Numbered from the stretch's first letter, positions 518 to 58,296 are shown. The stretch: DNA of 60,973 nt from an uncultured archaeon (GCA_964353635.1 CAYGVS010000003.1:1-60973); one strand, 5' to 3'. Program-made: numbers and translations. The notes: a model not told the origin generated them from the letters alone.

Positions 518-2071
518 TCACATCGTGAAGGGCTTTTGCTTCTTCTTCTTTTTCACAAGCAGAAAAATGGCTCCTGCTACCACGGCAGCCACTGTTATTA
601 TTATCAGCCATCCCCAGTCCGCAAGCATGACCCCAACAGAGGGGCTTTCCCCAACGCATGCATAATCCTGGCAGCCTGTCTGGCAGGTCTGCAGGGTTAT
701 CCAGTTGTCTCCCAGGGGAGCGCACAGCTGCAGGTTCATGCCAGCGCATCTCCTCTCGCCGGGATTGCATATCATGACAAAACCAGTTCCGGTTGGGGTT
801 TCAGTTCCTGAGGCAGCTCCTGCCTCATAGCCTTCTGCGTAAAGCTCTGTCTGGAACTGGTCTATCAGGGAGGTGTTGACCTCCTTCCTGACTGAATAGG
901 ATATGCTGACCTCCTGCCCTGGTGAAAGGGTGGCGTAATTGAAGACGTACTCTGGGTCAGCCTCGACTATCTGGTATCCTGAGGCTCCCAAGGCTGTCAC
1001 GGTGATGTTGACCGCATTGCTTGTGAAGGCCTTGGGGATTTTCTCATAGACAATGAAATTGCTCGCTCTGTTCTGCCCTGAATGCCTGTAGGTGTTGGTC
1101 ACGGTCGAGCTCCCATTGAACACCCTTATGCTCCTCGTAGCTGTAATGTTTGAGGTTATTGACTGGGAAAGCCTCAGCATGTTCTGGAAGGCCTCCTGGC
1201 TCATCTTTCCCTTGTTCATGATCTTTTCTAAGGCAGCCTGCAGCTTCAGGTTGTTTCGCAGGCCGACACCAGGGACAAGCACTGGTCTGCTGCTGGCGTT
1301 CTTCTCAGTCGGGGTTGTTGCATATCCTGGACCACCCCCTCCTGGACTGCTTCCGCCAGCTGGCGGATTCCCGCTTGAAGTGACAGTGATAGGTATTGTG
1401 TCTGTCTCAGAATCAGCGTTGGATGGTGATGTTGTTATAGTTATGGATGATGTGCTCACGCCAGAAAAGCTTACTGTCCACGAGATCCCGACGCTCTCGC
1501 CTGAGCCGCCCTCACCGCCTGCTATTGATGATATTGTTTGGATGGCGCTTCCCGAAGTCAGGGAGGCGCCTGAGGGAAGGCTGAAACCGACTGCGACGGT
1601 CTGAGCTGTGGTCTCGCCCCAGTTCTGGACAGTCATCTGGATTGTCTGGGAGCCTGTTGGGTTTGAAAATGAAGAAGGTGTGACTGAAGTGACAATGGAA
1701 GGGGGGAGCTTGATGTCAAAGGCGCTCGAGGTTCCTGAGTCCGAATATGGCACTGCTGAGACCGCGGATATGGTCTGCGCGGAAAGCTTCTCGTTGGCTA
1801 TGACAGAGGTCCAGGAGACGCTTGTGGTCCCATCGCTATATGTCTTTGTGGAGTTCTCTGAGGATGTAAAGACGCTGGAGTTCTGGAGAGTGGTGAGTGT
1901 TACGCTGCCTGAGCCTGTGAGCCCTGAAACAGTGACCGTGAGGGGTAGGGATTTCATCACGCTCCCTGAGTCAGCCCCGAACTGGTCCACTGAGACAGTA
2001 AGGGTTGCTGAAACGCTGGAGATTAGAGTGATTGAGCATAAAACTGCAGCAAACAAAATCATGTTTCTCAT
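518..2071 (-). CDS. Ser/Thr-rich secreted surface protein with C-terminal transmembrane anchor
   Basis: The ATG at 2071-2069 overlaps the stop of the upstream giant gene (TAATG). The track start at 2089 is a GTG alternative. Signal peptide MRNMILFAAVLCSITLISSVSA. Cys-rich module CNPGERRCAG..CQTGCQDYAC. C-terminal helix WGWLIIITVAAVVAGAIFLLV followed by KKKKKQK. Confidence 0.75.
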   Translation of the reverse strand: MRNMILFAAVLCSITLISSVSATLTVSVDQFGADSGSVMKSLPLTVTVSGLTGSGSVTLTTLQNSSVFTSSENSTKTYSDGTTSVSWTSVIANEKLSAQTISAVSAVPYSDSGTSSAFDIKLPPSIVTSVTPSSFSNPTGSQTIQMTVQNWGETTAQTVAVGFSLPSGASLTSGSAIQTISSIAGGEGGSGESVGISWTVSFSGVSTSSITITTSPSNADSETDTIPITVTSSGNPPAGGSSPGGGGPGYATTPTEKNASSRPVLVPGVGLRNNLKLQAALEKIMNKGKMSQEAFQNMLRLSQSITSNITATRSIRVFNGSSTVTNTYRHSGQNRASNFIVYEKIPKAFTSNAVNITVTALGASGYQIVEADPEYVFNYATLSPGQEVSISYSVRKEVNTSLIDQFQTELYAEGYEAGAASGTETPTGTGFVMICNPGERRCAGMNLQLCAPLGDNWITLQTCQTGCQDYACVGESPSVGVMLADWGWLIIITVAAVVAGAIFLLVKKKKKQKPFTM

Positions 2072-5000
2072 TAAACCACCCTGAACCACTTGCTTGTGGT
2101 CTCTGTATTTGCATTGTATCCTGTCTGAAATTCAACCATGTATTCGCCTGACCACTGTCCCAAAGGCGCTATCTTTAATATCGCATATCCGTCCTGGTTT
2201 GTGATGTTTGTCATCTGGGGAAGTATGTAATCGACTCCCTGCTCCAGCTTCTTGAATCCCATGCCAGGGATGTTCCCTTTTATGGATGTGATAGTTATGC
2301 CTGCTCCTTGGATCGGGCTCTGGTCGAAGTTGTATGCTCTTGTAAGGATGGTTATGTTCCTGCCGCTGGCTATCTGCCACTCGTCCTTCATAAGGAGCAT
2401 GTCTGTGCCATTATACTTCTCTATCCTCCATTCCGGCTGCTGCTCCCAGGACAGGCTTTCATTCCTTTCCCCGAACTGCACATTCCCTGACCATATGGAG
2501 CTTGGCAGGCTTCCGCTCTTCTCGCTTATTTCACCGCTCTCATTCGTGTAAAAGTCTTTCCTGTAAATCACATTGGAATTGGTGTTGCTTTCAGACCACC
2601 ATTCCTCTGTTATGTTAAGGTCATCATCAACAACTATCCGATTCAGAGCCTGCTGTCCATCATCAAGGTCATCATATACAACTGCATAAAATGTTGCGTT
2701 TTTAGCCCCATCCATGTTAAGGTCGAGGTTCAGGCCGGCCTCGCTGATGACGCCGTAATAGCTCGTAGTTCCATCCTTCACCCTAACATCTATCGCAGGC
2801 CTTGGCAGGCTTCCCAGACTGCTGAAGTTCCCTATGCTCACCCCCTCCCAAGGGCCTGGGCCTACTTTTGTGAGGTAGAGCTGGCTGGTGAAATTGTCCC
2901 CTGAGAATGCTGGAATGGCTGCCGAGAAGCTTGCAGAGGTGCTGAACCAGGCCATCTTTACGCAGTCCTGAACATTCCACACTGAGCACATGGGATAATC
3001 CACTGAAGCATTGGACAGCAGGATGTTATAGTCGGTCCCGCTTATGTTTATCCCCAATATATACCATACATTGGAGGTTGATGGCCCTCCCCCTCCTCCA
3101 CTGCTCCGCACGCTTACAGGATTCAAATAAATGCTATTTGGGAAATCCGTGTCCTTTATCCCTATCACGACATCGCCTGCGGTCGTATTCGCGTCCAGGA
3201 CCTTCATCATGTACATCCTGCCGTTCTTCGTCACGTTTATGGTGGGCGTTGTGGCTGAATTGTATCCGATCGCGCCGGTAGTGAAGTTGCAGTCTCCTGA
3301 CTTTATCCACACCCAGCTGTCATTGGCGGCTGTTATGTAGTAGAAATATTGGGGGTTCGTGAGCTTGCTGCTCCTGTAGGTGGCATTGTTATTGTTGTTC
3401 CCGGCTGCTGGAGGCTTCATGAAATTGCATGAAGCAAGGTTCTGCACCTGCTCTCCGGGGCTTGCGAAATCAAACACAGCCTTGAAGAACTTGCCTGCCT
3501 GCGTCCAGTTGAGGGTGTAAATATCCTGGACCTCCCCAAAAATCTCGCCATCATACCTTGATATGGGAAGTTGCTTGAATCCGGAAGAATAGCCAGCCTG
3601 GCCTGTATAGCCGTCCACAAGGAAGACCCTTGGGGAGGCGCGTGGCCACTTCCACTCCTCAAGTATCTCTTCTGTGTTGCCCTGTTTCACTTTTATCTCA
3701 AACACATATTCTCCTGCTCCAAACCCGTACTGGCTTATGTTGGATATAATCAGCTCTCCCGCGCCGTTTATGGTTGTGTTGGGAACTGGGTTCAGGGTAT
3801 AAATATTGTTTGTCGTGGCTTTCCTTACCCTTACGCTCTGGATAGAAACGTTTGCCTGCGCATTGTTGCCCGCAGGCGTCTTAACAAAAATAGGTATGGA
3901 AACATTCCCTGTTATCCTGAAGTCTCCCAAATCCGCCCAGTCGCCTATCTTGTTGGAATAGAATCTCACCGTGTCCGCCCTGGGATCTATGCTTAGCAGG
4001 GTCACTGTGTCATTAAGGCCAAACACCCTGTTGCTGGGATTGGTGTCGCTCACTGACAATGTGGTTGAAAAATTATATTCCCCTGTCTGGTTGAAAAAGA
4101 AGAATGTGTCATATATCCCAGCTGTCTGGCTGTCAGATATGGCTATGTATGTAAAGCTGTTTGTGCTGCCATCTCCATCAAGATCCAAGCCCCTGTTCTG
4201 GCCTGAACTCTTGTCCCATCCTCCAAGGTACTGCTCCTCAATCCTGCCTATCTTTATCACCCCGCTCTTGGAATTTGAGATATTTATGTAGGCGCCTGTC
4301 TGGGCCAGCACATTCACGCCTGTGAGCTTTACCCTAGTCTTGCTTATCGAGTTCACCTTCCACTGGCCCCCATAGGAATCGCTGAATGTGCCTGTTATGC
4401 TGAACGGGCCTCCAAGCTGGGTCATGTTCGAGGCGTTGATTGATATCCAGAGATAGCTTGTGTTGTGGTAGAAGTAAAGGGACCTGTTCTGGCTCCTGGA
4501 AAGCACCCTGTCAAAGTCCCCTGAACCCACAAGGTTTTCAGTGAACCCGTGGTAGAAGGTGGTGGAGCTTACAGGAGGGACCATGACATAGCCGCTTTGC
4601 TGGCATCCCTGGTTCCCACAGTTCGTCCACATCTCCCCGCATATGCCATTTGTGATATTGACCCTGAATTGGCCGTTGTTGTCGATTGAGACTATAGTCC
4701 AGCTCTTTCCTGCGGCAGAGAAGCTGGCTCCGGCACTATAATTTGTTGCACCTATCCTCAGCATGCTTCCATTGCCCAGAACAGTTATATTTGTTCCTGA
4801 CATTCCGCCTCCGCAGGTCTGGAAGTTCCATTCGCCTGAAGCCTGTATGCAGAAGGCCTGGCTGTTGTTCCACAAACCTGCCACAAACATACCGTTGAAG
4901 CCCCTCTGGTTATCACATCTGTCCCTGTCATTGTTCACCTCTATGTCCTTGGATGGCGTGTCTGAATACCACACCCCTGCTTGCTCTATGCTGGGTATCC

Positions 5001-8728: not shown

Positions 8729-8785
8729 TTTATAAGCGTGCACGGACAATATTTACATATGCCTGCTAAAGAGGGAAGGCGACAC

Positions 8786-9394
8786 ATGTCGCCTTCAGGC
8801 CAAAAAAAAGGTGCCATTGAGCTTAGTCTTAGTTTCATAGTCACTGTTGTTTTTGCAGTTGTTTTGCTGAGCTTGGCCATTATGTGGCTCCAAGGATTCT
8901 TCGGGCAGCTGCCAGGAATAAGCAACAATCTTGTTCAGCAAGCTCAGGCAAAGATTCAGGATACGTTCGCCAATACGCAGAGTAATTTTGCAATCTGGCC
9001 CACACAGTATCCCATTAAGGCAGGGGACAATATCAGAATGTGCGCTGGAATAAAGAACGATGCTGACGATGGAATGGGTCATGATTTTGCTATAAAGGTT
9101 GAATTAGTATCCGCAAGTCTTAGCATATGCTCGACAGGTGATGTGACCACATGCGGGAACCTCAAGACGACTGTTGAGAATAACTGGTTAAGTTATAATA
9201 AGAAAAAATCTCCCATTTCAATAGGTGGCATCGATGCATGTAGGCCCATTGATTTAACTGTTCCTGCCAACGCGAAGAAAGGTAACTACATATTTGACAT
9301 ACTCGCATGCAAGGATGTTGCATCGTCAGATGAATGCACTGCTGAAAACATGTGGGGTGGAAGTGCACAACATCTGACCTTAACAGTGAACTAA
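8786..9394 (+). CDS. Pilin-like protein with class III signal peptide
   Basis: The ATG at 8786 is preceded by gagggaagg (8771-8779). N-terminus MSPSGQKKG/AIELSLSFIVTVVFAVVLLSLAI. The track ORF starts earlier, at 8738. Confidence 0.65.
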   Translation: MSPSGQKKGAIELSLSFIVTVVFAVVLLSLAIMWLQGFFGQLPGISNNLVQQAQAKIQDTFANTQSNFAIWPTQYPIKAGDNIRMCAGIKNDADDGMGHDFAIKVELVSASLSICSTGDVTTCGNLKTTVENNWLSYNKKKSPISIGGIDACRPIDLTVPANAKKGNYIFDILACKDVASSDECTAENMWGGSAQHLTLTVN

Positions 9395-9435
9395 ATTCTG
9401 AGAATAATATATTCCAGCTAACCATATAGTACTAC

Positions 9436-9906
9436 ATGGACGTTTCCATGATTTTCGGCATAATCTTCACCCTCATTCTTATCGGTTTTATTCTGGTTTT
9501 TGGGGGAGAGCAAATCGCCAATTTATTAGGATTAGGAACACAGACCCAAGTCCTCAAGACCATAGACAATCTTCAGGAGAAAGTGGATGAGATATACAGG
9601 CTTGCTGAGAATTCTGCTGAGGAATTCAAGCTTTCCTTCCCAAAGGAATACAAATTATGCTTCTTCAATACTTCGGACCCGAAGCAGCACCTGTCAGCAG
9701 GATGGAATCCAGACATCACAATGCTTTATCTGATAAACCAGAGCAGATATAACATATGGTTTTACCAAGGGAACAATAACGCTGCGGGCCAGGGAAAGAG
9801 GATTCCATACCTTGATATTCTCACAGATAAAAATTTCTGCGTCCCAGGGGGCTCCAAGGTCTATGTGACAAAGAGGTGGAGTGGAGTCAGCATAGAGAAG
9901 ATTTGA
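9436..9906 (+). CDS. Small N-terminally anchored pilin-like protein (atypical leader)
   Basis: N-terminus MDVSMIFGIIFTLILIGFILVFGGEQ. It shares the MIFGII helix start with the next ORF and sits in the same operon. Confidence 0.5.
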   Translation: MDVSMIFGIIFTLILIGFILVFGGEQIANLLGLGTQTQVLKTIDNLQEKVDEIYRLAENSAEEFKLSFPKEYKLCFFNTSDPKQHLSAGWNPDITMLYLINQSRYNIWFYQGNNNAAGQGKRIPYLDILTDKNFCVPGGSKVYVTKRWSGVSIEKI

Positions 9907-9913
9907 GGTTCGC

Positions 9914-11029
9914 ATGCTCGCAATTCACCGCATCTTCCAGATGATATTCGGGATAATAGTCTCCGTCACCATTCTCTATTTCCTGATTGTCTATTCAGGC
10001 CAGTACAAGCAGAACCAGGAGGACTTTCAGAAGGCGCTGATACTGAAGGCCTTTGCTGATGAGGCGAAGAGCGTCTACCTCACAGGCATATCCACGAACT
10101 TCACCCAGTTCTACAAGTATGACTTCTCCTCATGCTTCATTAAACCCCAGACAAAGTCCCTTCCTGAAATGCAGTGCATGGGGACTGGCATTGCAGACGT
10201 GCCTGTTGACACGCCACTCATCTTCTATCCCGGCAAGCAGGTGTACATAAGCAGGGGCTCCCTGGATTACGGCTGGTGGGTGTACAACTTCGCTGAGGCC
10301 ATGCCCAGCATCACCTTTGTATTCAATCCAGAAGGCTCCCAGGAAGAGAAGGATGTCATAACCAGCATTGTGCAGCTTATACCTGACACCACTGATGACT
10401 GGAGCGTGGTCAAGGTCGGGTTCGCAATATGCGATGGCGGCAGCTTGTCCAACTGTGGGGACCAGCCTTGCAGCAAAGATGATATTCTCTCAATTATCAG
10501 CTCATGGGAAGCTAAAACCAAATGCACAGCGTCCCTGAAGAAGAGCATGAAGCTTGTGACAGTCTCCCGGTCATGCGGGAGCTTCATGCCCCAGAGCGGC
10601 GTTTGCATAGGCTATCCCAACACTTATGGTGTGGGCAATGCCTACATCCAGGGCTCCGGGAAGGAGTATGTATGGAAGGACCCCCTTGACCTTGTGGCCC
10701 TCTCTCTGGGAGGCTCTGAGAAGGATGAGTTCGGGAAGACCGCAGGAGAGAAGCTCTATGAGATCAAGAATTCAGCCCTTATGGCAAGGCTCTCCCTGGC
10801 CGCGGACATCACTTCCAGGAGGATAGAGCTGATCCTGCGCAGCATCAGCCCTGACAATCCTTGTTATGCGTCTTATGTAAGCCTTGTGAACGAGCTTTCA
10901 GGCATTGGTGGGAAGGATTACACAGACCTTTCCCAGATGGATGGGCTAAACCAGCATCTGAACGCTGCAAAAGCATACTTCCAGAGCCTGGAGGAAGCGG
11001 GCTGCGAGAGGAGCATGTATGGAGCGTAA
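9914..11029 (+). CDS. N-terminally anchored pilin-like protein, 371 aa
   Basis: N-terminus MLAIHRIFQMIFGIIVSVTILYFLIVYSG. It starts 8 nt after the previous stop. The globular remainder has several Cys. Confidence 0.5.
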   Translation: MLAIHRIFQMIFGIIVSVTILYFLIVYSGQYKQNQEDFQKALILKAFADEAKSVYLTGISTNFTQFYKYDFSSCFIKPQTKSLPEMQCMGTGIADVPVDTPLIFYPGKQVYISRGSLDYGWWVYNFAEAMPSITFVFNPEGSQEEKDVITSIVQLIPDTTDDWSVVKVGFAICDGGSLSNCGDQPCSKDDILSIISSWEAKTKCTASLKKSMKLVTVSRSCGSFMPQSGVCIGYPNTYGVGNAYIQGSGKEYVWKDPLDLVALSLGGSEKDEFGKTAGEKLYEIKNSALMARLSLAADITSRRIELILRSISPDNPCYASYVSLVNELSGIGGKDYTDLSQMDGLNQHLNAAKAYFQSLEEAGCERSMYGA

Positions 11030-11513
11030 TCCGGCCAGAAAAGGCCAGTCAGAGATAATGGAATACATAGTCATGGTAGTCCTCATAGTGGCAGCAATCA
11101 TAGCCATAATATTATTCCTGAGCTGGTGGAGCATAATGCAGATCGAGATGCAGGGGTCCAAGAACCAGAATGATAAGATTGTCTCTCTTGGCCAGATGAT
11201 AATGGGAGACTACATGCTCATAAACGAGCAGGCAATGCTTGATGACGCCAAGCTCACATCGCTGGTATCAATGAGCTCTGAAGGATGCGAACGGCTCCAG
11301 GCCTTGCTGGGAGCAAACTGGTACGCCAAAATAAAATCCCTTGACATGGAAGGAGATATCCCTTGCACGTGGGGGAATTACCCGGATTGCAACTCCTGGA
11401 CCATATGCGAATACAAAGAGCCTCACATAGCTCAGGTGTTCCCGGTCAATGTCTACAGGAAGCTATCTGACAAGGCCGCCCTGGCTGTGCTCGAGGTGGG
11501 GGTGTACACATGA
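11019..11513 (+). CDS. Pilin-like protein with class III signal peptide
   Basis: N-terminus MERNPARKGQ/SEIMEYIVMVVLIVAAIIAIILFL (KGQ + E at +2/+3, DUF361/EppA-substrate-like pattern). It overlaps the upstream gene by 11 nt. Confidence 0.65.
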   Translation: MERNPARKGQSEIMEYIVMVVLIVAAIIAIILFLSWWSIMQIEMQGSKNQNDKIVSLGQMIMGDYMLINEQAMLDDAKLTSLVSMSSEGCERLQALLGANWYAKIKSLDMEGDIPCTWGNYPDCNSWTICEYKEPHIAQVFPVNVYRKLSDKAALAVLEVGVYT

Positions 11514-12028
11514 ATTCAAAGAAGGCCCAAAGCAGCATGATCCTGATAATAATAGTAATAATGATATTCGTGGCCATGATAGTCTTCCTGCTCAACCTGG
11601 CAGGCTCAGTGAACAGGGAGACCTACACCAACCTCTATGTGAACAACCTTCTCCTGTCCGTTATGAGGACAGACACAGGATACACTGACTCCAAATGCAA
11701 GCTTGTCTCAGACCTTGTATTCTGCGCGTACTTTACGCCGGAGTGGAGGTGTGGGAATGAAAGATGCCTTGACCTGGCGAACGAGACCCTGCACAAATAC
11801 CTGGGGGTCTTCGCCAAACAGACCAACAGCAGCATGAGATACCTTTTCACAGTCACCACGAACACGCTGGCCACCAATGAAGGGGAGCCGATAACCCTTG
11901 AAATGGGTGATGCGTCAATCAAGACAGCCAAGGCCACAAAAAGATACTCTTATCCTCTTGTGCTCACCAAGTCGGACGGCTTCAACCAGCACACCCTGAA
12001 GATACAGCTCGTGGTCGCCAAGAACTAG
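11510..12028 (+). CDS. Pilin-like protein with class III-like signal peptide
   Basis: N-terminus MNSKKAQ/SSMILIIIVIMIFVAMIVFLL. ATGA overlap with the upstream stop. Confidence 0.55.
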   Translation: MNSKKAQSSMILIIIVIMIFVAMIVFLLNLAGSVNRETYTNLYVNNLLLSVMRTDTGYTDSKCKLVSDLVFCAYFTPEWRCGNERCLDLANETLHKYLGVFAKQTNSSMRYLFTVTTNTLATNEGEPITLEMGDASIKTAKATKRYSYPLVLTKSDGFNQHTLKIQLVVAKN

Positions 12029-30324: not shown

Positions 30325-31980
30325 CTAGTAGTCTTCCATTCCTCCGCCACCCATGCCCCTTGGAGGCATCGAAGGCGCTTTGCCTCCTGAGCCTGAGGAT
30401 GAGATCACATCATCAATCCTCAGTATCATCTCTGCTGCCTCTGCCGCGGACTTTATCGCCTGGGTCTTTATCTTGAGCGGCTCGATGACCCCCAGCTTTA
30501 TCATGTCCTGGACCTCTCCCGAGAACACATCAAGACCGAAGGTTATCCCTTTCTTGTCGTGCTGTGCCCTGAGGTTGGCTATCTTGTCTATGGGGTCAAG
30601 GCCTGCGTTCTCTGCCAGGCTCCTTGGTATCACTTCCATGGCATCCGCAAAGGCGTTTATCGCAAGCTGCTCACGGCCTTTGAAGGACTCTGCGTATTTC
30701 CTGAGCTCCTTGGCCACCTCTATCTCTGTGGCCCCTCCGCCAGCAACTATCTTGCCCAGCTCAAGGGCTGCTGCTATGCCTTTGACAGCATCCTCCACAG
30801 CCCTCTGGACCTCGTCTATCACATGCTCAGTCCCGCCCCTTATAAGGATGGTGACGGCCTTGGGCTGGGAGCATTCCTCAACGAAAATCATCTGGTCTCC
30901 GGCGATCTTCCTCTCCTCAACCCGGCCTGCGAAGCCAAGGTCGCTCTTGGTAAGGTCGTTCAGGTTGGAAACTATGCTTGCTCCTGTTGCGCGGGCAAGG
31001 GCCTCCATGTCTGATTTCTTGACGCGCCTGACTGCCATGATGCCTGCCTTTGTCATGAAGTGCTGCGCAGCGTCGTCTATGCCCTTCTGGCAGAAGAGCA
31101 CGTTCGCGCCTGACTTGATGACCTTGTCCGCCATGTCCCTGAGCATGCGCTCCTCCTGCTCTATGAAGGCCTGCATCTTCTCCGGGGAGTTTATGCTGAT
31201 TTTCGCATCCCCTTCCAGCTCCTTCACCTCGAGGGCAGAATCGATCAGCGCTATCTTGGCTTTCTCTGCTTTCTTGGGCATGGCTGAATGAACAACCTCC
31301 TTGTCTATGAGCACCCCGTTTATCAATTGGCTGTCGTTCATCGAGCCTCCTTCCTTCTTCTCGAGCTTTATGTTGTCCACATCTATGCTCACCACAGTCC
31401 CCTTCACTTCGGCAATTTTCTTTATGGCTTTGACCGCGATCTCCGCAAGCTCCTCGGACGCCTTCTCCGCGGACTTGCCTGTTATGGCAGTGTTCGCAAT
31501 CTGCTCGAGAGCCACATCGTCATTTATGTCAATCTTCCTGGAAATCGTGCTGAGGACTTCCAGGGCCTTCGCCTTGGCCATCCTGTAGCCCTTGGTTATG
31601 ACAGTGGGATGTATCTCCTGGTCAAGGAGGTCTTCCGCCTTCTTGAGCAATTCCCCTGCCAGCACGACTGCCGTGGTAGTCCCGTCACCCACGGACTTGT
31701 CCTGCGTCTTCGCTACTTCAACCATCATCTTCGCGGCCGGATGCTCTATATGCATCTCCTCCAGAATCGTTGCGCCGTCATTCGTTATTACCACGTCCCC
31801 TATGGTATCCACGAGCATCTTGTCCATCCCCTTGGGCCCTAGGGTAGTACGTACAGCATCGGCAACCGCCTTTGCTGCGGTTATGTTGGAGCGCTGGGCA
31901 TCCCTGCCTTTGCTCCTCAAGGTTCCCTCAGGTAATATCAAAATCGGCTGCCCGCCGAGTTGCGCGAATCCATTAGCCAT
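30325..31980 (-). CDS. ths: Thermosome subunit (group II chaperonin)
   Basis: [25 protein letters not shown] and VAGGGA motifs. C-terminal GGM-rich tail. A gaggtga SD lies upstream. Confidence 0.95.
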
Positions 31981-32115
31981 ATTTTCACCTCACTGGTAAA
32001 TATCAAAAACAATTCCATCTTAGATGGAATTGCATAGTATATGTAACCAATTAACTTATAAATGCTTTTCCATGCCATTTTCCCTTCAAAGGGAAAGAAA
32101 ATGGGCTCGCTGGGA

Positions 32116-32247
32116 TTTTCGAACGCACAGTTAGCCGTTTTATCAGCTTCCTATGTAAATCCTTTCTTTTGGATAAGCCCTACCCTTTTCAACGCCGAAA
32201 GGAAGGTGTCTCTTGACACCTTCTGGCTATTTCGAAAAGGGTTGGGT
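32116..32247 (-). other. Putative tRNA intron 3 (132 nt, in the T loop at 59/60)
   Basis: The geometry is canonical: T stem as the outer helix, 4-bp central helix UUCG/CGAA, and 3-nt bulges AUA and AAU. Cutting after the second bulge nucleotide yields a 7-nt T loop UUCGAUU. The intron is highly structured, with a 13-nt helix and a 9-bp hairpin. Confidence 0.6.
32202..32223. repeat. 9-bp-stem hairpin gaaggtgtc-tctt-gacaccttc (inside tRNA intron 3)
   Basis: Perfect inverted repeat. It differs from the 32390 copy only by a compensatory pair change (T:A versus C:G). Confidence 0.8.
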
Positions 32248-32269
32248 ATCGAACCCAGGACCTTCGGCT

Positions 32270-32321
32270 TCTACGCCATAGCAACCGCGATCTTTCTCTC
32301 TCGCGGGGCCTTATAAGACCT
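32270..32321 (-). other. Putative tRNA intron 2 (~52 nt, in the anticodon loop, 36/37 or 37/38)
   Basis: It lies between UUGCG(C) and A-GCCGA. It contains hairpins GGUC-UUAUAA-GGCC and CCGCGA-N10-UCGCGG. The helix-bulge geometry is off by one nt from a canonical BHB, so the exact junctions are unresolved. Confidence 0.35.
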
Positions 32322-32333
32322 GCGCAAGCCGGC

Positions 32334-32353
32334 CATAAAGGACGGCATTCGGC
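32334..32353 (-). other. Putative tRNA intron 1 (20 nt, at or near position 25/26)
   Basis: A GCCG repeat makes the junction ambiguous by 4 nt. A bulge-helix-loop arrangement is possible: 6-bp outer helix (AGUCGG/CCGGCU), 4-bp central helix (UAGA/UUUA) and a 3-nt bulge UGG. A competing strict BHB also exists but gives no sensible tRNA. Confidence 0.45.
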
Positions 32354-32389
32354 GCTCTACCGACTGAGCTACGAGCCCGATTGTGGATA

Positions 32390-32411
32390 GAAGGCGTCTC
32401 TTGACGCCTTC
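32390..32411. repeat. 9-bp-stem hairpin gaaggcgtc-tctt-gacgccttc (11 nt upstream of the tRNA 5' end)
   Basis: Perfect inverted repeat with the same loop and flanks as the 32202 copy. Confidence 0.8.
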
Positions 32412-32428
32412 AATCTCGATTCTGGATA

Positions 32429-32450
32429 GAAGTTGACTATTGTCAACTTC
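32429..32450. repeat. 9-bp-stem hairpin gaagttgac-tatt-gtcaacttc
   Basis: Perfect inverted repeat. The stem sequence is identical to the hairpin at 39801-39822. On the tRNA strand both leader hairpins are followed by TATCCA(G/C)AATC. Confidence 0.8.
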
Positions 32451-32525
32451 CAATCTTTTATGGATTTGCTATGCATCCAGCTAATTGTAGTTATTGGAGG
32501 ATACTGTTATAAATTAGAATGCTGG

Positions 32526-32963
32526 TCAGCCGGCAGCCTTTTTTTTCTTCGAGCGGAAGAGAAAGAGTTGTGCAATCTGCTCCATCATCCTGGGCTCCGC
32601 GGCGACTATGTCCACAGAGGAGACAATCCCGATGAGGCTGTTGTTGTAGACCACAGGCAGCCTCTTTATTTTCTTCTCTGTCATCGCATTGGCCGCGTCC
32701 TCTATCTCAGCGTCCGGCTCTATCACGACGACCTCCCCAGTCATGGCCTCCTGAACCTTGGTCTTTGATGGGGTCTTGTTCTTTGCAACGACCTCCCTCA
32801 TTATGTCCCTCTCGGTGATTATGCCAACAAGCCTCTTGCTGTCGACAACGATGAGGCATCCTATGCTGCATGAGGCCATTATTTTGGCCGCTTGCTGTAT
32901 GGTAGATTTTGGAGTAACAGTCTTCACATCTGTCGTCATTATATCCTTTACTTTCATTGTCAC
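32526..32963 (-). CDS. CBS-domain pair protein
   Basis: Two CBS repeats (VKDIMTTDVKTV...LIVVD..RLVGIITERDI and VQEAMTGEVVVIEPD...LPVVYNNSLIGIVSSVDI). ATGA overlap with the upstream gene. Confidence 0.85.
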   Translation of the reverse strand: MTMKVKDIMTTDVKTVTPKSTIQQAAKIMASCSIGCLIVVDSKRLVGIITERDIMREVVAKNKTPSKTKVQEAMTGEVVVIEPDAEIEDAANAMTEKKIKRLPVVYNNSLIGIVSSVDIVAAEPRMMEQIAQLFLFRSKKKKAAG

Positions 32964-38619: not shown

Positions 38620-39774
38620 ATGAAACCCGCATTGCTTGACGGCAACGCAGCGGCTGCCTGGGGAGGCAGGCTTTCCAGGGTGCAGGTCGTTCCCAATTTT
38701 CCTGTGACCCCGCAGACAGAGCTCATCGAAAGGTTTGCTGAATGGAAGGCCAAGGGAGAATGGAAAGGTGAGTTCCTCCCGATGGAATCAGAGCACAGCG
38801 TCCTTGCAGCTGCGATAGCTGCTTCTGCCACAGGAGCTAGGGTATTCAGCGGCAGTTCGTCCCAGGGGCTCATGCTCATGCATGAGATGACGTATGTGGC
38901 CTCAGGGATGAGGGTGCCTGTAGTGATGATTAATGTGTCTAGGGCATTGTCCGCGCCCATATCCCTTTGGCCTGACCACAATGACATTCTTGGACAGAGG
39001 GATTCCGGGTGGCTGATATTCTTCTGCGAGAGCAATCAGGAGGTCCTGGACACAGTGATACAATCCTTCAGGATTTGCGAGAATGAACGTGTGCTTCTCC
39101 CTGCATTCGTCAACATGGAGGGCTTCGTCCTTTCATACACAAGGGAGCCTACCAAAATCCCAGAGCAGAAGGCTGTTGACAGGTTCCTGCCCAAGTACAG
39201 GCCGAAGGTTTATCTTGACCCCAAGAAGCCCATGGCCATGGGTGTTGGAGTGATGAAGGAGTATCCATATTTCCGCAGTCAGGTCTATCTTGCCCAGAGG
39301 AATGCTTTGGATGTCATCCAGGAAGTGCACAAGGAATGGGGGAAAAAGTTTGGAAGGGAGTATGGTTTGGTCGAGGAGTTCATGATGGATGGAGCCAAAG
39401 CTGCCCTGATAAGCATGGGCGCGAACAGCTCCATTGCAAAGGCTGCTGTAAAAAGCCTCAGGTCTAACGGCGTGTCCGTAGGCCTTCTCAGGCTGAGGGT
39501 TTACAGGCCGTTCCCTAGAGAGCAGATAAGGAAGTCCCTGGAAGGCGTGGAAGCGGTTGGGGTAATAGACCAGAACCTTTCTCCAGGCTATGGAGGAATA
39601 GTCTATCCAGAGATAAGGGACTGCATTTATGACAGGAAGGTCCCTGTGAGCGATTTCATTGCAGGACTGGGAGGAAGGAATATCTCCCAGCAGGAGCTCG
39701 AGCAGTTCGGTGCAGAAGTTGCAAAAACAGCGAATTCCGGGAAGTCCCTCGTCCTTTGGCAGGAAGTTGATTGA
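38620..39774 (+). CDS. porA: 2-oxoacid (pyruvate):ferredoxin oxidoreductase alpha subunit
   Basis: LLDGNAAAAWG...VVPNFPVTPQTELIE...ESEHSVLAAAIAASATGARVFSGSSSQGL.LMHE follows the PorA/KorA pattern. Confidence 0.85.
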   Translation: MKPALLDGNAAAAWGGRLSRVQVVPNFPVTPQTELIERFAEWKAKGEWKGEFLPMESEHSVLAAAIAASATGARVFSGSSSQGLMLMHEMTYVASGMRVPVVMINVSRALSAPISLWPDHNDILGQRDSGWLIFFCESNQEVLDTVIQSFRICENERVLLPAFVNMEGFVLSYTREPTKIPEQKAVDRFLPKYRPKVYLDPKKPMAMGVGVMKEYPYFRSQVYLAQRNALDVIQEVHKEWGKKFGREYGLVEEFMMDGAKAALISMGANSSIAKAAVKSLRSNGVSVGLLRLRVYRPFPREQIRKSLEGVEAVGVIDQNLSPGYGGIVYPEIRDCIYDRKVPVSDFIAGLGGRNISQQELEQFGAEVAKTANSGKSLVLWQEVD

Positions 39775-39851
39775 AATCAACTTCGGTCCAGAAATGGCAG
39801 GAAGTTGACTGATGTCAACTTCAGTCTTCAATCGGCAGGAAGTAGGGCAGG
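39757..39851 (+). repeat. 2.5 tandem units (~38-39 nt) each starting tggcaggaagt; two carry perfect 9-bp hairpins
   Basis: Hairpin gaagttgat-tgaa-atcaacttc (39763-39784) has the porA stop TGA in its loop. The second hairpin is gaagttgac-tgat-gtcaacttc (39801-39822). A third partial unit is ggcaggaagtagggcagg. Confidence 0.8.
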
Positions 39852-39943: not shown

Positions 39944-40420
39944 TCACTCAAGTATGAGCGGCTGTGACGCCTTCAGTATCTTGATTTTTTCCTCCATCTC
40001 ACTCATCCTTTCCACTAACGGGTCCAAATCGAACTTCTGCATGCTGCCTTCGAGCCAGTGACTCTTCGCCTTGAGGCTTTCAAGGTCCCTTGTCAGGCTC
40101 TTCATGTTAAGCCTGTTCATCTCCTCTTCCAGGCTCATCACTCTGGCCATGTCATCCTTTAGGAACTTTATTTCAGCTTCCATCTTCTCAACCAGGTGGG
40201 TGTTTTTCTTTATGCTCTCCCTGACCTCGCTTTTGAGATGCTGGAACTCCCTTGCTATATCCTCCTCAAGGGTTCTGATGTTCCTGTCAGAAAGGATTGA
40301 GCTCTTGAGCGTCTCTATCTCCAGCTGCATCCCCCTTATCTCGCTAAGGACAGCAGCCGTGCCATTATCTGGCTGTTCGTGTTTCTCAGGAGCATGCTTC
40401 TTAAGCATGAGTTTGCGCAT
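39944..40420 (-). CDS. Coiled-coil protein (~158 aa)
   Basis: The start is set at MRKLMLKK (ATG 40420) because the longer ORF overlaps the upstream gene and a tttttatt box lies ~25 nt upstream. Heptad-like E/K/L-rich sequence. Confidence 0.55.
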   Translation of the reverse strand: MRKLMLKKHAPEKHEQPDNGTAAVLSEIRGMQLEIETLKSSILSDRNIRTLEEDIAREFQHLKSEVRESIKKNTHLVEKMEAEIKFLKDDMARVMSLEEEMNRLNMKSLTRDLESLKAKSHWLEGSMQKFDLDPLVERMSEMEEKIKILKASQPLILE

Positions 40421-40461
40421 GAATATAATTTGGATTGACTGAATAAAAAGCCCGCGGAATC

Positions 40462-40932
40462 TCAGAGCTCCTGCTTCAGGCTGTAGCCCTTGCACACGCT
40501 GTTGAGAACCTGCACCTCTGTCAGCTGGCCTGCCAGATTCTCTGTTATGTTGGCCTCTATGACAATGGATTCAGAAGGCTTGAGGGAGTTGTCAGCATCA
40601 ATCTGCTCTTTTGCCGGGAAGGATTTGTATCCAGTGCCCTGTATGTAGACCTGGAAAGAGAATCCGTAAAGGTTGATTGTGCCGGTATTGATTATCTTGG
40701 CTCTAAGCCAGTCGCTTCCACCTGAAAAATCCCATTCCACACCGTTGCTTCCGAAGGAGGAGTCGAAATCATAGCTTGTGCTCTGGCATGTTATCTGGCT
40801 ATTGGCGTTCTGTCCTGTGCTGTTAGCTTGATTTCTGGCGAGGTTTAATGCCCATGGCCCTATGATCCCTGCTATCACCACTATGATGGATATCACGAGA
40901 ATCGTGGATAGGATAGCGTCAATGGCTTTCAT
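40462..40932 (-). CDS. Archaeal type IV pilin-like protein (Pilin_N-type N-terminus)
   Basis: MKAIDAILSTILVISIIVVIAGIIGPW resembles the archaeal pilin N-terminal helix (..A.S.VI...L...I.V....). The beta-rich remainder follows. ATGA overlap with the upstream gene. Confidence 0.6.
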   Translation of the reverse strand: MKAIDAILSTILVISIIVVIAGIIGPWALNLARNQANSTGQNANSQITCQSTSYDFDSSFGSNGVEWDFSGGSDWLRAKIINTGTINLYGFSFQVYIQGTGYKSFPAKEQIDADNSLKPSESIVIEANITENLAGQLTEVQVLNSVCKGYSLKQEL

Positions 40933-41642
40933 ATCTCCGAACCTTCTATTTCGAGGAAATCGGCTCCTGACTCCAGCGTGAATTTAACCGTATATCCGGC
41001 GTAGACAGAATCCATGTGGCTGTATAGGGTCGCGTATGCCAGGTCCGTCCCGGACTGCTCAAGTGCTGTGAAGCCTGTGCCGGATTTTGATGAATCCATG
41101 CCATCGAGGCTAATGTCAAGCGACTGGATTGGCATCCGCTGGCCTGAGTCCTTCTGGTAGACAGCAAGAAGTATCTGGTCTGTGCTATAGCTCTGGTGGC
41201 TTGATGGTGAGCCTATTTTGCGGAAATAGGCCTTTATGTGCTCGTTTTCCAGGACATAGGACTGTGTCCCTTCAAAGATGTCCTCATAAGCCTGCGTATC
41301 AAGCTTGGAGCCGAATATCACATTTCCGAAACTCACGCTGGTCCTGGGGGAGATAAGAAGGCTTTCAGAATCAAAATCCCAGAATATTCTGTCTGAGCTG
41401 CCGTTGAAGGAAAGCCTGCCTGTATCGAACTTGAGGCTCACTGTCCTTTTCGAGCCATTGCCTTCAGAGGCCACTTCATGCGTGATGCTGTCCATCTCCG
41501 AGAACACGCCCTTCATCTTCTCCAAGGCTGCGGCATGCTGCATCCTCAGGACTACGGGCATCCCTGCATTATAAACTATTACCGTGGCTGCCAGCGTCAG
41601 GCCAATGAATATGACAGCAGAAATCAGGGCTATGGCTTTCAT
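40929..41642 (-). CDS. Archaeal type IV pilin-like protein (Pilin_N-type N-terminus)
   Basis: MKAIALISAVIFIGLTLAATVIVYNAG, followed by a beta-rich body. Confidence 0.6.
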   Translation of the reverse strand: MKAIALISAVIFIGLTLAATVIVYNAGMPVVLRMQHAAALEKMKGVFSEMDSITHEVASEGNGSKRTVSLKFDTGRLSFNGSSDRIFWDFDSESLLISPRTSVSFGNVIFGSKLDTQAYEDIFEGTQSYVLENEHIKAYFRKIGSPSSHQSYSTDQILLAVYQKDSGQRMPIQSLDISLDGMDSSKSGTGFTALEQSGTDLAYATLYSHMDSVYAGYTVKFTLESGADFLEIEGSEI

Positions 41643-55200: not shown

Positions 55201-56664
55201 TTATTTTCCGCCCTTTGCGCCGAACCTGTAGCTGAGCAGGTTGTAGAATCCTTTGACTTTCCTTTTCATATCGGACAGGTCCCGCACAGTCATTATGTGG
55301 TGGGCCCATACATTTGGCCTCAAATAGAAGCTTTCGTACAATCCCTTGTCAACAAGATTTACAATCTGCTCCTTTGTAAGCCCTGGATATTCAATGACAG
55401 TGCATTGCTCCCCACCATCAACCCACTCTGTCCATCGCTTGGCTTTTATGAGATTGTTTCTCTGACAGTAATCGTAGAACTCCGTACCTGGATACGGGAT
55501 GAGCGCGGACACCTGGATGGTGTCACATGCGAGATTCTTGATCAACTGTATAGTTTTGTTTGCTGATTCCATAGTCTCCCCAGGCCCGCCTATCATGAAG
55601 CACCCGTGCAGCCTGAGTCCAGCCTTCTTCGCGACCTTTGAGAAGCGTTTCATGTTTTCTATGGTCTCCCCTTTCCTGACGGAATTCAGGACCTTCTGAT
55701 CGCCGAACTCGAACCCGACGACAAGCATCCTGAAATTGGCTTTTTTCATGAGACTGAATAACTCTGGATCAAAAATGTCAGCCCTCGAATTGCCTGAGAA
55801 CGACAGCTTTCTATGGAGGCCCCTGCGCATTATCTCTTCACATATCTCTCTGCATCTTTCCTTATTGGCAGTTAAGGTATCATCCTCGAACATGATCTCT
55901 TTCAAGTAAGGGAACATCTTGAGGTCATGCTCAATCTCATCCGCTATGCTTTCCGCGGACCTCAGCCTGTATTTCCTTCCGTAAAGGGTCTGCGGAAGCA
56001 GGCAAAACGAACAATAATTGGGGCAACCCCTTCCAGCAATGATTGTAAGAAATGGGTACAGCTTTCCGGCATCAAAATATTTCCTCGGGTCAATGTGGTG
56101 CCATGCCGGAAATGGAAGTTCATCGAGATTCTCAATGAAGGGCCTGTCAGGATTTTTCCTTATATAATTCCCCTTCCTGTATGTTATACCTAAGACACCT
56201 TCAAGTCCCTGATTCTTATCTATTGAAAAGGCTATATCCCTGAGAGTGTAATCGTATTCTCCTCTTGCAATCACATTAATTCCAGGATCTATTTTAAGTG
56301 TCTGCTCAGGTAGGGCAGAGACATGGCTTCCGATCAGGATTGTGAGTGGTTTTCCACCAAGCGTTTTTTTTAGCTCAGATGCCTGCTTAATATCGTTGTA
56401 GATGGAGGGCGTCGTTGCAGGGATGACTATCATATCTGGCTTAAATCGCAACGCTTTCCCTTTCACATCTTCGAATGGCATCTCCGTTGAGGCGCAGTCA
56501 AGAAACATCACCTTATTTCTGGATTTCTCAAGGACTGCGACAGCGACCAGTGCATAATCAGGAGCGCGCGAAACCCTCCCCCTCGTTCTTGCGAACCATC
56601 TCTGTTCCCTGACAAACCCTTTAACGCCGTAAAAAGCCGGATTAAGGAAGAATACCTTGGCCAT
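55201..56664 (-). CDS. B12-binding-domain radical SAM enzyme (second, diverged)
   Basis: VFFLNPAF...PDYALVAVAVLEKSRNKVMFLD, then AGRGCPNYCSFCLLP. Confidence 0.85.
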   Translation of the reverse strand: MAKVFFLNPAFYGVKGFVREQRWFARTRGRVSRAPDYALVAVAVLEKSRNKVMFLDCASTEMPFEDVKGKALRFKPDMIVIPATTPSIYNDIKQASELKKTLGGKPLTILIGSHVSALPEQTLKIDPGINVIARGEYDYTLRDIAFSIDKNQGLEGVLGITYRKGNYIRKNPDRPFIENLDELPFPAWHHIDPRKYFDAGKLYPFLTIIAGRGCPNYCSFCLLPQTLYGRKYRLRSAESIADEIEHDLKMFPYLKEIMFEDDTLTANKERCREICEEIMRRGLHRKLSFSGNSRADIFDPELFSLMKKANFRMLVVGFEFGDQKVLNSVRKGETIENMKRFSKVAKKAGLRLHGCFMIGGPGETMESANKTIQLIKNLACDTIQVSALIPYPGTEFYDYCQRNNLIKAKRWTEWVDGGEQCTVIEYPGLTKEQIVNLVDKGLYESFYLRPNVWAHHIMTVRDLSDMKRKVKGFYNLLSYRFGAKGGK

Positions 56665-56697
56665 ATACCAAATTAATGCGAATAGCTTATAAAATCG

Positions 56698-58296
56698 TTA
56701 GCTAAAGAACGACGCCTTCCTCTTGTATATGAAGACCCTGTTTCCAGGCCAATTCCCTTCCATGACCATCACCAAGTCGAAATCGTCCCTCCTGTCAATG
56801 ACGTCCTTGAGCTTGTAGCCCGCACCCTCTTCGCCATCCCAGTACTCGTGCACAATCACCCACTCTATCGCAGGCGGCGTCAGGTTGAACTTCTCGTATT
56901 CAGGCTTGTGTGGCCTTCTCATGTAATCCTTGCTGTCAAGCATTATCTTCAGCTCCTCTTCGCCCCCGTCGGCGACATAGGGCTGCCTCTCTATAATCAC
57001 GTTCTTGTCTCCGAAGACGACGAAAGGCACGGATTGCATCCTTGAGAAGTCGGAGAGGACAGTCGTCCTGTTCGTCATCCGCTCGCTTATGTAAATGGCC
57101 GGAGCCACGAAATCCGTGCTTGCTTGTGATATCCTTCTATCCAAGGAAAACCCGTAGGACGAGAGGACGGAGATTATAAACAGCACCACAATTATGGCAG
57201 GCACTACGCTGGATTTCCTGCTGTCGTATAACGTCTGCATTCCCCTGACAACTAGCACAGTCGCCAATGGAACCAATGCTGCAAGGTACCTGAACTGGAC
57301 ATTTGGTATTATATTAAAGAAGAGCGAATAGTAGATTATCACCACAGCCAGCGTTATCTCCCCTGTCACTTTTTTTGACTTCCACAGCCAGTAAAGGATG
57401 AAAAATAGCATGACATGCAAGCCGAAGACGTAGGCTATCGTGTTGCTGACGTTCGCCAGGATTCCCTGGACAGTGTAGCCACCGCCAAAGACGTCACCGA
57501 CCCTTTCCCCTAGCTTTGATATCCCCATGGTCATGAAGACGTATTCCATGAGCAGCCAGGGCGACAGTATTAAGAAGAAAATGGCGGTCGCCTTCAAGAG
57601 CGCCTTTTTTTCTTTCAGCAGAAGCCGTACCCTCCTCTCCAGCAGGAGCGAAAGGAAGACCATGGGTATGAAAATTACAAAAGTGAATTTTGTGATGATG
57701 CCGAGACCAAGTGAGGCCGCGGTCAGATAGAGGTCCTTTCTCTCCTCGAATTTCATGAACCTCACGACGAAAAACGCTGTGGCTGTCGCGAAGAGCATCA
57801 CCCCGGGGTCATGGCTGAATGAGGCAGACATTGTGAAAACAGACGCATTGAAAGCTATCAGAAGCATCACAAGCCAGAGAATCCATTCCCTTTTTTCCTT
57901 GTACAGCATCCTGTAAAAGTGGTACGCAATGAACATCGTGAGCACAGTCTCCGCCGCGGTTATAAGATAATACGCTATCTGACTCTTCCCCATGAAGAAC
58001 GCGACCATTGCCACAAGAACTGATTGCAGCGGCGGGTAGTAAGAGATCCCCCCGAAGAACTTGTACTGCAACTCATAGTCATGGACAAAGGATTTTACGG
58101 CCTCGAGTGAGAGTGTTGGGTGACTGAACCACCATTTCGCGATGTCATCGAAAAAATAAGCGCCCAGAGCATGGAAATACCCGTCACTCTCCGCTGATAT
58201 GAAGACGTCGGCATTGTTAGCTATAAATATGCAGATTATTGCTATGAAGAACAACAGCATGGCAAGCTTTTTGTCTACATTAATAGACTGTGACAT
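56698..58296 (-). CDS. Polytopic membrane glycosyltransferase, GT-C fold (ArnT/PMT_2-like) with C-terminal soluble domain
   Basis: More than 10 hydrophobic helices over ~370 aa, followed by a ~150-aa soluble tail. No WWDYG (AglB) motif seen. Confidence 0.5.
   Translation of the reverse strand: MSQSINVDKKLAMLLFFIAIICIFIANNADVFISAESDGYFHALGAYFFDDIAKWWFSHPTLSLEAVKSFVHDYELQYKFFGGISYYPPLQSVLVAMVAFFMGKSQIAYYLITAAETVLTMFIAYHFYRMLYKEKREWILWLVMLLIAFNASVFTMSASFSHDPGVMLFATATAFFVVRFMKFEERKDLYLTAASLGLGIITKFTFVIFIPMVFLSLLLERRVRLLLKEKKALLKATAIFFLILSPWLLMEYVFMTMGISKLGERVGDVFGGGYTVQGILANVSNTIAYVFGLHVMLFFILYWLWKSKKVTGEITLAVVIIYYSLFFNIIPNVQFRYLAALVPLATVLVVRGMQTLYDSRKSSVVPAIIVVLFIISVLSSYGFSLDRRISQASTDFVAPAIYISERMTNRTTVLSDFSRMQSVPFVVFGDKNVIIERQPYVADGGEEELKIMLDSKDYMRRPHKPEYEKFNLTPPAIEWVIVHEYWDGEEGAGYKLKDVIDRRDDFDLVMVMEGNWPGNRVFIYKRKASFFS

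Follow-up and report, generated by a model that had tools for sequence, protein, structure and literature searches.

A probable tRNA-Ile(UAU) gene with three introns, one of 132 nt in the T loop, in an Aenigmarchaeota-like archaeon

The 60,973-nucleotide (nt) stretch of DNA from an uncultured archaeon analysed here (GCA_964353635.1, CAYGVS010000003.1:1-60973; hereafter the window) carries a 277-nt locus at positions 32102-32378 of its minus strand, read from 32378 to 32102. This locus is most probably (we put it at roughly 85%) a genuine and functional archaeal gene for tRNA-Ile(UAU), interrupted by three protein-spliced introns of the bulge-helix-bulge (BHB) type, in an Aenigmarchaeota-like DPANN host. 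Its exons of 29, 9, 21 and 14 nt join to a 73-nt product, GGGCUCGUAGCUCAGUCGGUAGAGCGCCGGUCUUAUAAGCCGAAGGUCCUGGGUUCGAUUCCCAGCGAGCCCA. A preliminary description of this DNA had proposed that the 277 nt form one archaeal tRNA gene, in which three introns of the endonuclease-cleaved type interrupt a 73-nt tRNA, and comparison with orthologues upholds this outline; two of the intron borders and the isotype are revised below.

Exon-intron structure

Positions within the gene are numbered S1 to S277 along the minus strand, S1 being 32378 and S277 being 32102, and every feature given in this section lies on that strand. Exon 1 (S1-29, 32350-32378) comprises the acceptor 5' strand, the D arm, G26 and C27-G29, reading GGGCTCG-TA-GCTC-AGTCGGTA-GAGC from 32378, and is identical at 29/29 positions in seven orthologue lineages with diverged introns. 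It is followed by intron 1 (30 nt, S30-59, 32320-32349) at position 29/30 and by exon 2 (S60-68, 32311-32319; GTCTTATAA), which supplies G30, U31 and the anticodon loop C32-A38, with the anticodon TAT at 32313-32315; this exon is kept in L003, L006, L024 and L026, all found by synteny. Intron 2 (42 nt, S69-110, 32269-32310) is placed at 38/39. Exon 3 (S111-131, 32248-32268) carries G39-A43, the variable loop AGGTC, the T stem 5' strand and T54-T59, and is separated by intron 3 (132 nt, S132-263, 32116-32247), inserted in the T loop at 59/60, from exon 4 (S264-277, 32102-32115), which holds T60, the T stem 3' strand, the acceptor 3' strand and the discriminator A73. The gene closes with CCCAG-CGAGCCC-A, its last base being A73 at 32102; the CCA end is not encoded. 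The acceptor 5' strand and D arm at 32378, as well as the partners CTGGG (S121), CCCAG (S265) and CGAGCCC (S270), are all where the preliminary description had placed them, the latter three occurring in one copy each within the 277 nt.

Joined in genomic order, the exons form a canonical tRNA cloverleaf with the junctions CGCCG|GUCUUAUAA|GCCGA and UUCGAU|UCCCAG. The spliced anticodon arm reads CCGGU-CUUAUAA-GCCGA with the anticodon UAU, and ARAGORN at default settings calls the product tRNA-Ile(tat).

Orthologues at the same locus

The gene order Pus10-L21e-Rpb4-DUF655-CBS-[tRNA]-thermosome-TFB is kept in relatives, in which the gap between the CBS and thermosome genes is always occupied by this tRNA gene. 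Fourteen further loci were retrieved by a metagenome scan with a conserved 19-mer, a pattern that includes exon 2. Three blocks are conserved, namely ...GAGCG-YCG, GCGCAG-GTCTTATAA-GGCC and GGCGTAGAA-GCCGAAGGTC, with variable hairpins between them. A single splicing rule, applied to 17 loci and additionally to L026 and L025, gives a canonical cloverleaf in each, called Ile(tat) by ARAGORN at default settings. Every orthologue has the anticodon loop C32-U33-U34-A35-U36-A37-A38 (CTTATAA) and A73, even where synteny alone led to the locus. L026 (thermosome 76% identical) does not contain the search pattern, yet retains GTCTTATAAGGCC and GGCGTAGAAGCCGAAG.

Relatives that lack an intron and read straight through the predicted junction were found for introns 1 and 3. 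The orthologues L003, L004 and L005, whose thermosomes are 93% identical to that of the window, have a 153-nt gene without intron 3, which reads ...CCTGGGTTCGATTCCCAGCGAGCCCA and ends in ...GGTCCTGGGTTCGATTCCCAGCGAGCCCA; the T arm is here uninterrupted, matching exactly the predicted junction UUCGAU|UCCCAG at 59/60. The T-loop intron is absent, with a clean junction, from six lineages in all (L003, L008, L011, L012, L018 and L019), and these orthologues confirm the 132-nt intron at 59/60 and the T loop UUCGAUU that had been proposed from the window. The intron at 29/30 is missing from L025, L028 and L029 (thermosome 77-78% identical, found by synteny only), one of which, L025, is the complete genome CP070801.1. 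In these the sequence GAGCG-CCCGT-CTTATA is contiguous, and therefore G30-U31-C32... follow directly after position 29. Intron 2 is present in all archaeal relatives. L025, L028 and L029 carry a strict canonical intron at 37/38 (central helix CUUA/UAGG) along with a 31-nt intron at 53/54, and L025 has no others. The intron-less bacterial tRNA-Ile(UAU) of L022 has the identical anticodon arm, G-UCGGU-CUUAUAA-GCCGA-AGGUC.

Splice motifs

Each of the three introns is bounded by a 3-4-3 BHB motif or a recognised relaxed form of it: that of intron 1 is strict, that of intron 3 has canonical outer helix (h), central helix (H) and bulges, and that of intron 2 is of the relaxed type only.

The intron 1 motif is a complete hBHBh' structure. 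In the window, h pairs A21-A23 with U31-U33, H pairs G24-C27 (32352-32355) with GCGC (32322-32325), the bulges are CGA and AGG, and the inner helix (h') begins directly after the bulge. The family form is h A21-G22-A23/U31-C32-U33, H G24-C25-G26-Y27/GCGC, with bulges C28-G29-N and A-G-G30. In a set of 15 distinct orthologues, h and H are paired throughout (100%), and six of the seven inner-helix pairs vary on both sides, with a covariation score of 0.29 against 0.14 for shuffled controls (0/500 reach the observed value) and 0.01-0.15 for registers slid by one to three columns. The central helix of L026 has undergone a compensatory change from GCGY/GCGC to GUGU/GCAU.

For intron 3, the T stem serves as outer helix, the central helix pairs UUCG (32250-32253) with CGAA (32118-32121), and the bulges are AUA and AAU. 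All of these elements had been listed in the preliminary description; they are indeed present and form part of the minimum free energy (MFE) fold. Across the family the central helix is UUCG/CGAR (UUCG/CGAA or UUCG/CGAG) and the bulges are AUR and AAU (CUU in L024); in L026 the helix has changed in a compensatory manner from UUCG/CGAA to UUCA/UGAA.

In intron 2, UUAU pairs with GUAG as the central helix; the 5' bulge is a clean A37-A38-G (AAG) of 3 nt, the inner helix is GCC/GGC, and the 3' site lies in a 1x2 loop adjoining G39. Cuts at 36/37, 37/38 or 38/39 produce the identical RNA, and 38/39 is chosen by geometry. The terminal blocks AAGGCC and GGCGUAGAA are found in all orthologues, L026 included, and the interior hairpin covaries. 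When enforced, the relaxed model lies 2-6 kcal/mol above the MFE. The canonical 37/38 geometry was rejected for the window, where the central helix CUUA/CGUA would be unpaired, and the shifted relaxed model was preferred.

Several points weigh against a spliced tRNA-Ile(UAU) gene of this structure. The intron 1 motif opens the D stem and is about 8 kcal/mol above the MFE. Intron 2 lacks a strict motif, having a weak central helix (two A-U and two G·U pairs) and a 3' site in the 1x2 loop; moreover, its motif pairs are invariant, so that covariation neither supports nor contradicts the model. Past the 5' bulge of intron 3, the helix is not closed by the strand beside the central helix, and a multi-helix, three-stem junction takes the place of h'. 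The window lineage has a C27·A43 mismatch. Invariance of exon 2 among the 14 orthologues fetched with the 19-mer is by construction, and only the synteny-found loci lend it independent support. No splicing endonuclease (tRNA_int_endo domain) was found among the 30 open reading frames (ORFs) of the window that were scanned, and splicing is something we infer from conserved motifs.

Detection in the window sequence

ARAGORN at default settings is blind to the gene and found no tRNA in the whole 61-kb window, whereas relaxed settings recover the same two gene ends, enclosing one 203-nt 'intron'. With introns allowed, ARAGORN also called a 'tRNA-Leu' (55670-57150, intron of 1386 nt), which overlaps a radical-SAM ORF and was rejected as false. 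Rfam gave no match in the whole window at the gathering threshold; at E<=10 there was a partial tRNA match of 15.9 bits, obtained via a pseudo T arm CUGGG-UUCGAUA-CCCAA. Apart from this partial match, Rfam matched nothing in the gene region even at E<=10. A self-splicing (group I or II) or homing-endonuclease intron was rejected, the 132-nt insert being without an ORF or a ribozyme core and far too short.

The whole stretch of the gene folds with -117.4 kcal/mol (z = -6.3 against shuffles), and its MFE fold holds the acceptor stem, the D arm, the T stem and the UUCG/CGAA helix. A BHB scanner run on the single sequence reported about 10 'strict' motifs per shuffled sequence and five in the real one. 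Single-sequence BHB geometry is therefore weak evidence and was dropped; the motif argument rests on the comparison of orthologues, because shuffles give more strict motifs than the gene itself. Taken by itself, the window sequence does not lift the gene above chance, and it is the comparison with orthologues that establishes it.

Functional status and proposed expression

The 73-nt spliced products of the window and L003 are identical, whereas the four-fold-degenerate sites of their thermosome genes are only 53% identical and the intron cores only about 45-55%. AUA is the main isoleucine codon, accounting for 588 of 1043 Ile codons (56%) in 26 window ORFs. Exon identity set against such divergence of neutral sites and intron cores, together with this codon usage, argues that the gene works and is not a pseudogene.

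The opposite view, namely that a former tRNA-Ile gene has been broken by hairpin-repeat and other insertions and yields no functional tRNA, is improbable. It could draw on the palindromic repeat of the leader and intron 3 (see below), which also occurs in ordinary intergenic DNA, on the failure of ARAGORN at default settings and of Rfam at the gathering threshold to recognise the gene, and on the relative L006/L023, which keeps only the 3' part. A dead gene would hardly be expected, however, to retain perfectly conserved exons in the face of saturated neutral divergence, to hold BHB motifs at its intron ends through compensatory changes, or to persist in interrupted form at one locus while thermosome identity falls from 99% to 76%; nor does it fit with AUA as the main Ile codon.

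If the gene is functional, transcription would start from the TATA box directly past the upstream CBS gene, producing a leader of about 100 nt. The archaeal splicing endonuclease would then cleave the 3-nt bulges of each motif and an RNA ligase would join the exons, while RNase P would trim the leader and the CCA-adding enzyme would complete the 3' end of the 73-nt tRNA. Intron 3 should be cleavable in the ground-state fold. Intron 1, by contrast, would be cleavable only if the RNA adopts another fold, with the 3' strand of the D stem paired to exon 2 and the 3' end of the intron. The exon-intron structure, its conservation and the covariation are observed; transcription, cleavage chemistry and splicing order are what we infer.

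Length of intron 3 and the palindromic repeat

Where present, the T-loop intron varies widely in size: 39 nt in L009 and L016, 76 in L014, 94 in L021, 101 in L010, 130 in L015 and 132 in the window. The window intron is homologous to those of L015 and L021, with which it has three stem-loops in common. In the window, the loop of stem 1 contains the palindromic hairpin GAAGGTGTC-AAGA-GACACCTTC (32202-32223, minus strand), which is also found in L015 and is missing from the homologous intron of L021. In L009 and L016, the 39-nt T-loop intron consists of little else than this same palindromic repeat, which also recurs inside introns 1 and 2 of other orthologues. Two tandem copies lie in the 5' leader of the window gene (32390-32450, minus strand; copies at 32390-32411 and 32429-32450) and are absent from the short leader of L003. 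The repeat also appears in ordinary intergenic DNA, at 39760-39850 (minus strand, two copies, after a small ORF) and at 8775-8796. Its full form is GATTGAAGGCGNC...GNCGCCTTCAATC, with a GAAGnnGnC-loop-GnCnnCTTC core extended to GATTGAAGGCG.../...CGCCTTCAATC, and it looks like a repetitive extragenic palindromic (REP) sequence or a miniature inverted-repeat transposable element (MITE). The unusual length of intron 3 is due to this repeat, nested within an older intron of about 94 nt; the 132 nt thus represent nested accumulation of a dispersed repeat.

An alternative for this part of the gene leaves the tRNA and its product unchanged and assumes that a stable small RNA, such as a circular intron RNA or a guide RNA, is encoded in or released from the 132-nt insert. 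Archaeal tRNA introns with C/D-box guides are known (Haloferax tRNA-Trp), which counts in its favour, as do the strong structure of intron 3 and the three-stem architecture common to L015 and L021, with a few compensatory changes. Nothing in Rfam matched a small RNA in the insert, either at the gathering threshold or at E<=10, and a C/D-box RNA was rejected, the sole CUGA box not being conserved in L015 or L021. Furthermore, close relatives lack the intron or have unrelated sequences of 39-101 nt in its place, so that no conserved function is required of it. We regard a small-RNA role as quite unlikely.

Anticodon and intron borders

The preliminary description had divided the inserted sequence into introns of 20, about 52 and 132 nt and had tentatively assigned the gene to tRNA-Arg(GCG); the junctions of this scheme would read ...GCGCC|CGGCUUGCGC|AGCCGA, with an anticodon loop UUGCGCA. 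Spliced in this manner, the window does give a 73-nt cloverleaf that ARAGORN calls Arg(gcg), and BHB-like pairing of GCGC with GCGU is present. As both versions form a legal cloverleaf, the window sequence alone could not choose between Arg(gcg) and Ile(tat).

The orthologues could. The 20-nt and ~52-nt segments are not conserved among them: the two bases before GCGCAGG ('32-33' of tRNA-Arg) are TT, AC, GT, AT, GC or CC, the CGGC stem strand is missing from most, and the stem-loop CCGGC-UUGCGCA-GCCGA is not maintained. Such variation is unlike a tRNA exon, the other exons being 100% conserved. What had been taken for the middle exon is actually the 3' end of intron 1, consisting of an inner-helix strand, a spacer and the central-helix strand GCGC; a role as 3' strand of the central helix of that intron accounts better for the GCGC block. 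The true 9-nt exon 2, GTCTTATAA, falls within the intron 2 of that scheme, and the idea that GCGC/GCGU forms the 5' site of intron 2 was rejected, the outer helix being absent in orthologues. The two introns therein are accordingly 30 and 42 nt long, at 29/30 and 37-39, instead of 20 and 52 nt, and the anticodon is UAU (Ile) and not GCG (Arg), since orthologues under one rule are all Ile(tat). With the UAU loop contiguous with the anticodon stem in L025, a C37 that would be atypical, and CGC and CGU codons rare (together 48 of 13,928 codons in the 26 window ORFs), tRNA-Arg(GCG) can be set aside as very unlikely indeed.

Genomic context and host

The gene is flanked by the CBS-domain gene (32526-32963) on one side and the thermosome gene (30325-31980) on the other, all on the minus strand, with Pus10, L21e, Rpb4 and DUF655 further upstream and TFB downstream. 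A TATA-like box, TTTATAA (32507-32513, minus strand), directly past the CBS gene stop is the likely promoter; TCTAATTTATAAC and the AACTACA box after it in this promoter region are common to the window, L003 and L006. Directly after A73, the T-rich tract TTTTCTTTCCC (32091-32101, minus strand) probably acts as an archaeal terminator. The nearest named relatives of the thermosome are in Candidatus Aenigmarchaeota/Aenigmatarchaeota metagenome-assembled genomes (MAGs), and the host is therefore a DPANN archaeon. A look-up of the exact thermosome product of the window returned no entry. Its G+C content is about 49%.

Immediately after the tRNA there is a weak Rfam match to CRISPR-DR57 (32064-32102, minus strand; 23.3 bits against a threshold of 39 bits). 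The sequence there is T-rich and comprises the tRNA trailer and the thermosome promoter; what is matched is one hairpin, TTTCCCTTTGAAGGGAAA, and not a CRISPR array. Pfam matched (E<=1e-5) none of the ORFs, 156-371 aa long, in two runs elsewhere in the window, one of five ORFs (8738-12028, plus strand) and one of three (39944-41642, minus strand). Codon usage in the 26 window ORFs is strongly skewed also for arginine, AGG making up 413 of 602 Arg codons.

Relatives with more introns or with half a gene

The tRNA-Ile(UAU) gene of L026 (2098-2387, plus strand; GCA_016783545.1, JADHWJ010000004.1), and likewise that of L027, has apparently four inserts: in L026 these measure 37, 60, 33 and 84 nt and lie at 29/30, 38/39, 45/46 (variable loop) and 59/60, respectively. 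Without them a 76-nt product remains, which ARAGORN calls Ile(tat). The published maximum for archaea is three introns per tRNA gene (PMC3239211, PMC8450103), and a full-text literature search for 'four introns' found no archaeal case.

In L006 (about 1986-2340, minus strand), which equals L023 (GCA_026397335.1, JAPLVB010000006.1), no more of the gene is present than the portion downstream of the intron 1 site, GCGCAG|GTCTTATAA ... CGAGCCCA. Exons 2-4 are intact and preceded by the same promoter-like box and a long leader full of hairpin repeats, the whole lying in inverted orientation with respect to the thermosome gene. A 5' exon was looked for and not found in the 10 kb to each side. The locus may be either a candidate split tRNA or a pseudogene; if split, its 5' half is expected to read GGGCTCGTAGCTCAG...GAGCGCCG and to continue with a strand that can pair with CCGGCCGTGT.

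The locus L017 (Ga0315277_10364399) is otherwise the same as the window, but reads AAAATCCAGCGAGCCCA and is one C short in the T stem 3' strand, an assembly error and a disabling variant being the two explanations. In L006, L024, L025 (2165-2307, minus strand, CP070801.1), L028 and L029, the tRNA gene as a whole has the opposite orientation with respect to its neighbours. These inversions, along with the differing sets of introns, mark the locus as a rearrangement hot spot.

It is tempting, if rather speculative, to see in this locus a natural series that captures the disruption of a tRNA gene in progress in Aenigmarchaeota, with relatives that have two, three and apparently four introns (at 29/30, 37-39, 45/46, 53/54 and 59/60) and one that has a 3'-half-only, possibly split gene, and with introns that apparently grow, and perhaps originate, by insertion of the dispersed palindromic repeat. 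If true, this would offer a concrete route, at the level of DNA, for the gain and expansion of BHB introns, and a member of the series would be the first tRNA gene of archaea to have four introns.

Comparison with known systems

BHB introns at non-canonical positions, one to three per tRNA gene, are well documented in archaea (PMC3239211, PMC4033280, PMC8450103). With three introns the window gene is at the published maximum, and the 59/60 and 37-39 sites, as well as tRNA-Ile(UAU) in DPANN, have been described already; taken alone, it does not extend existing knowledge. Its likely significance lies in the decoding of the most used Ile codon of the organism: it probably supplies that decoder and yet is missed by ARAGORN and Rfam. 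DPANN tRNA sets are often reported as incomplete, and genes of this type are the likely reason (PMC5829648). Many disrupted and 'missing' tRNAs occur in DPANN lineages with an alpha4-type endonuclease bearing an extra loop (PMC5829648).

The multi-intron tRNA genes of Thermoproteales and other Crenarchaeota (Sugahara et al. 2008; Fujishima et al. 2010; via PMC4033280, PMC8450103) resemble the window gene in having no more than three BHB introns per gene, in non-canonical sites that include the anticodon stem and T loop, in the combination of strict and relaxed motifs in one gene and in related intron sequences at different sites. The window gene differs from them in its DPANN (Aenigmarchaeota-like) host and in a 132-nt intron that owes its length to a nested palindromic genomic repeat.

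Within DPANN, the micrarchaeote ARMAN-2 (PMC3239211) has a tRNA-Ile(UAU) as AUA decoder with an intron beside the anticodon, as does the window gene. Its introns are short, with 13 nt at 59/60 and 25 nt at 37/38 of tRNA-Ile, in contrast to the 30, 42 and 132 nt found here in one gene, and the 59/60 and 53/54 T-loop introns of ARMAN-2 were cleaved in vitro. ARMAN-2 has an epsilon2 endonuclease, and ARMAN lineages are without TiaS (PMC3239211).

The three-intron tRNA-Ile(UAU) gene of the red alga C. merolae (PMC3728597) represents the same isoacceptor in a similar layout, with introns 5' of the anticodon loop, beside the anticodon and in the T loop, the outer ones being removed before the anticodon intron according to reverse transcription PCR (RT-PCR). 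That gene is eukaryotic and of independent origin, and its first intron is in the D stem, while that of the window gene is at 29/30.

The split tRNA genes of Nanoarchaeum equitans and Caldivirga maquilingensis (PMC4033280) differ from the contiguous window gene; the layout of L006/L023, with GCGCAG|G intact and a promoter-like box upstream, is as expected for the 3' half of such a gene. The orthologue family combines presence/absence polymorphism of introns at one locus with a genomic hairpin repeat in those introns, and as such is useful for addressing the long-standing question of how introns enter archaeal tRNA genes, lengthen there and lead to split genes.

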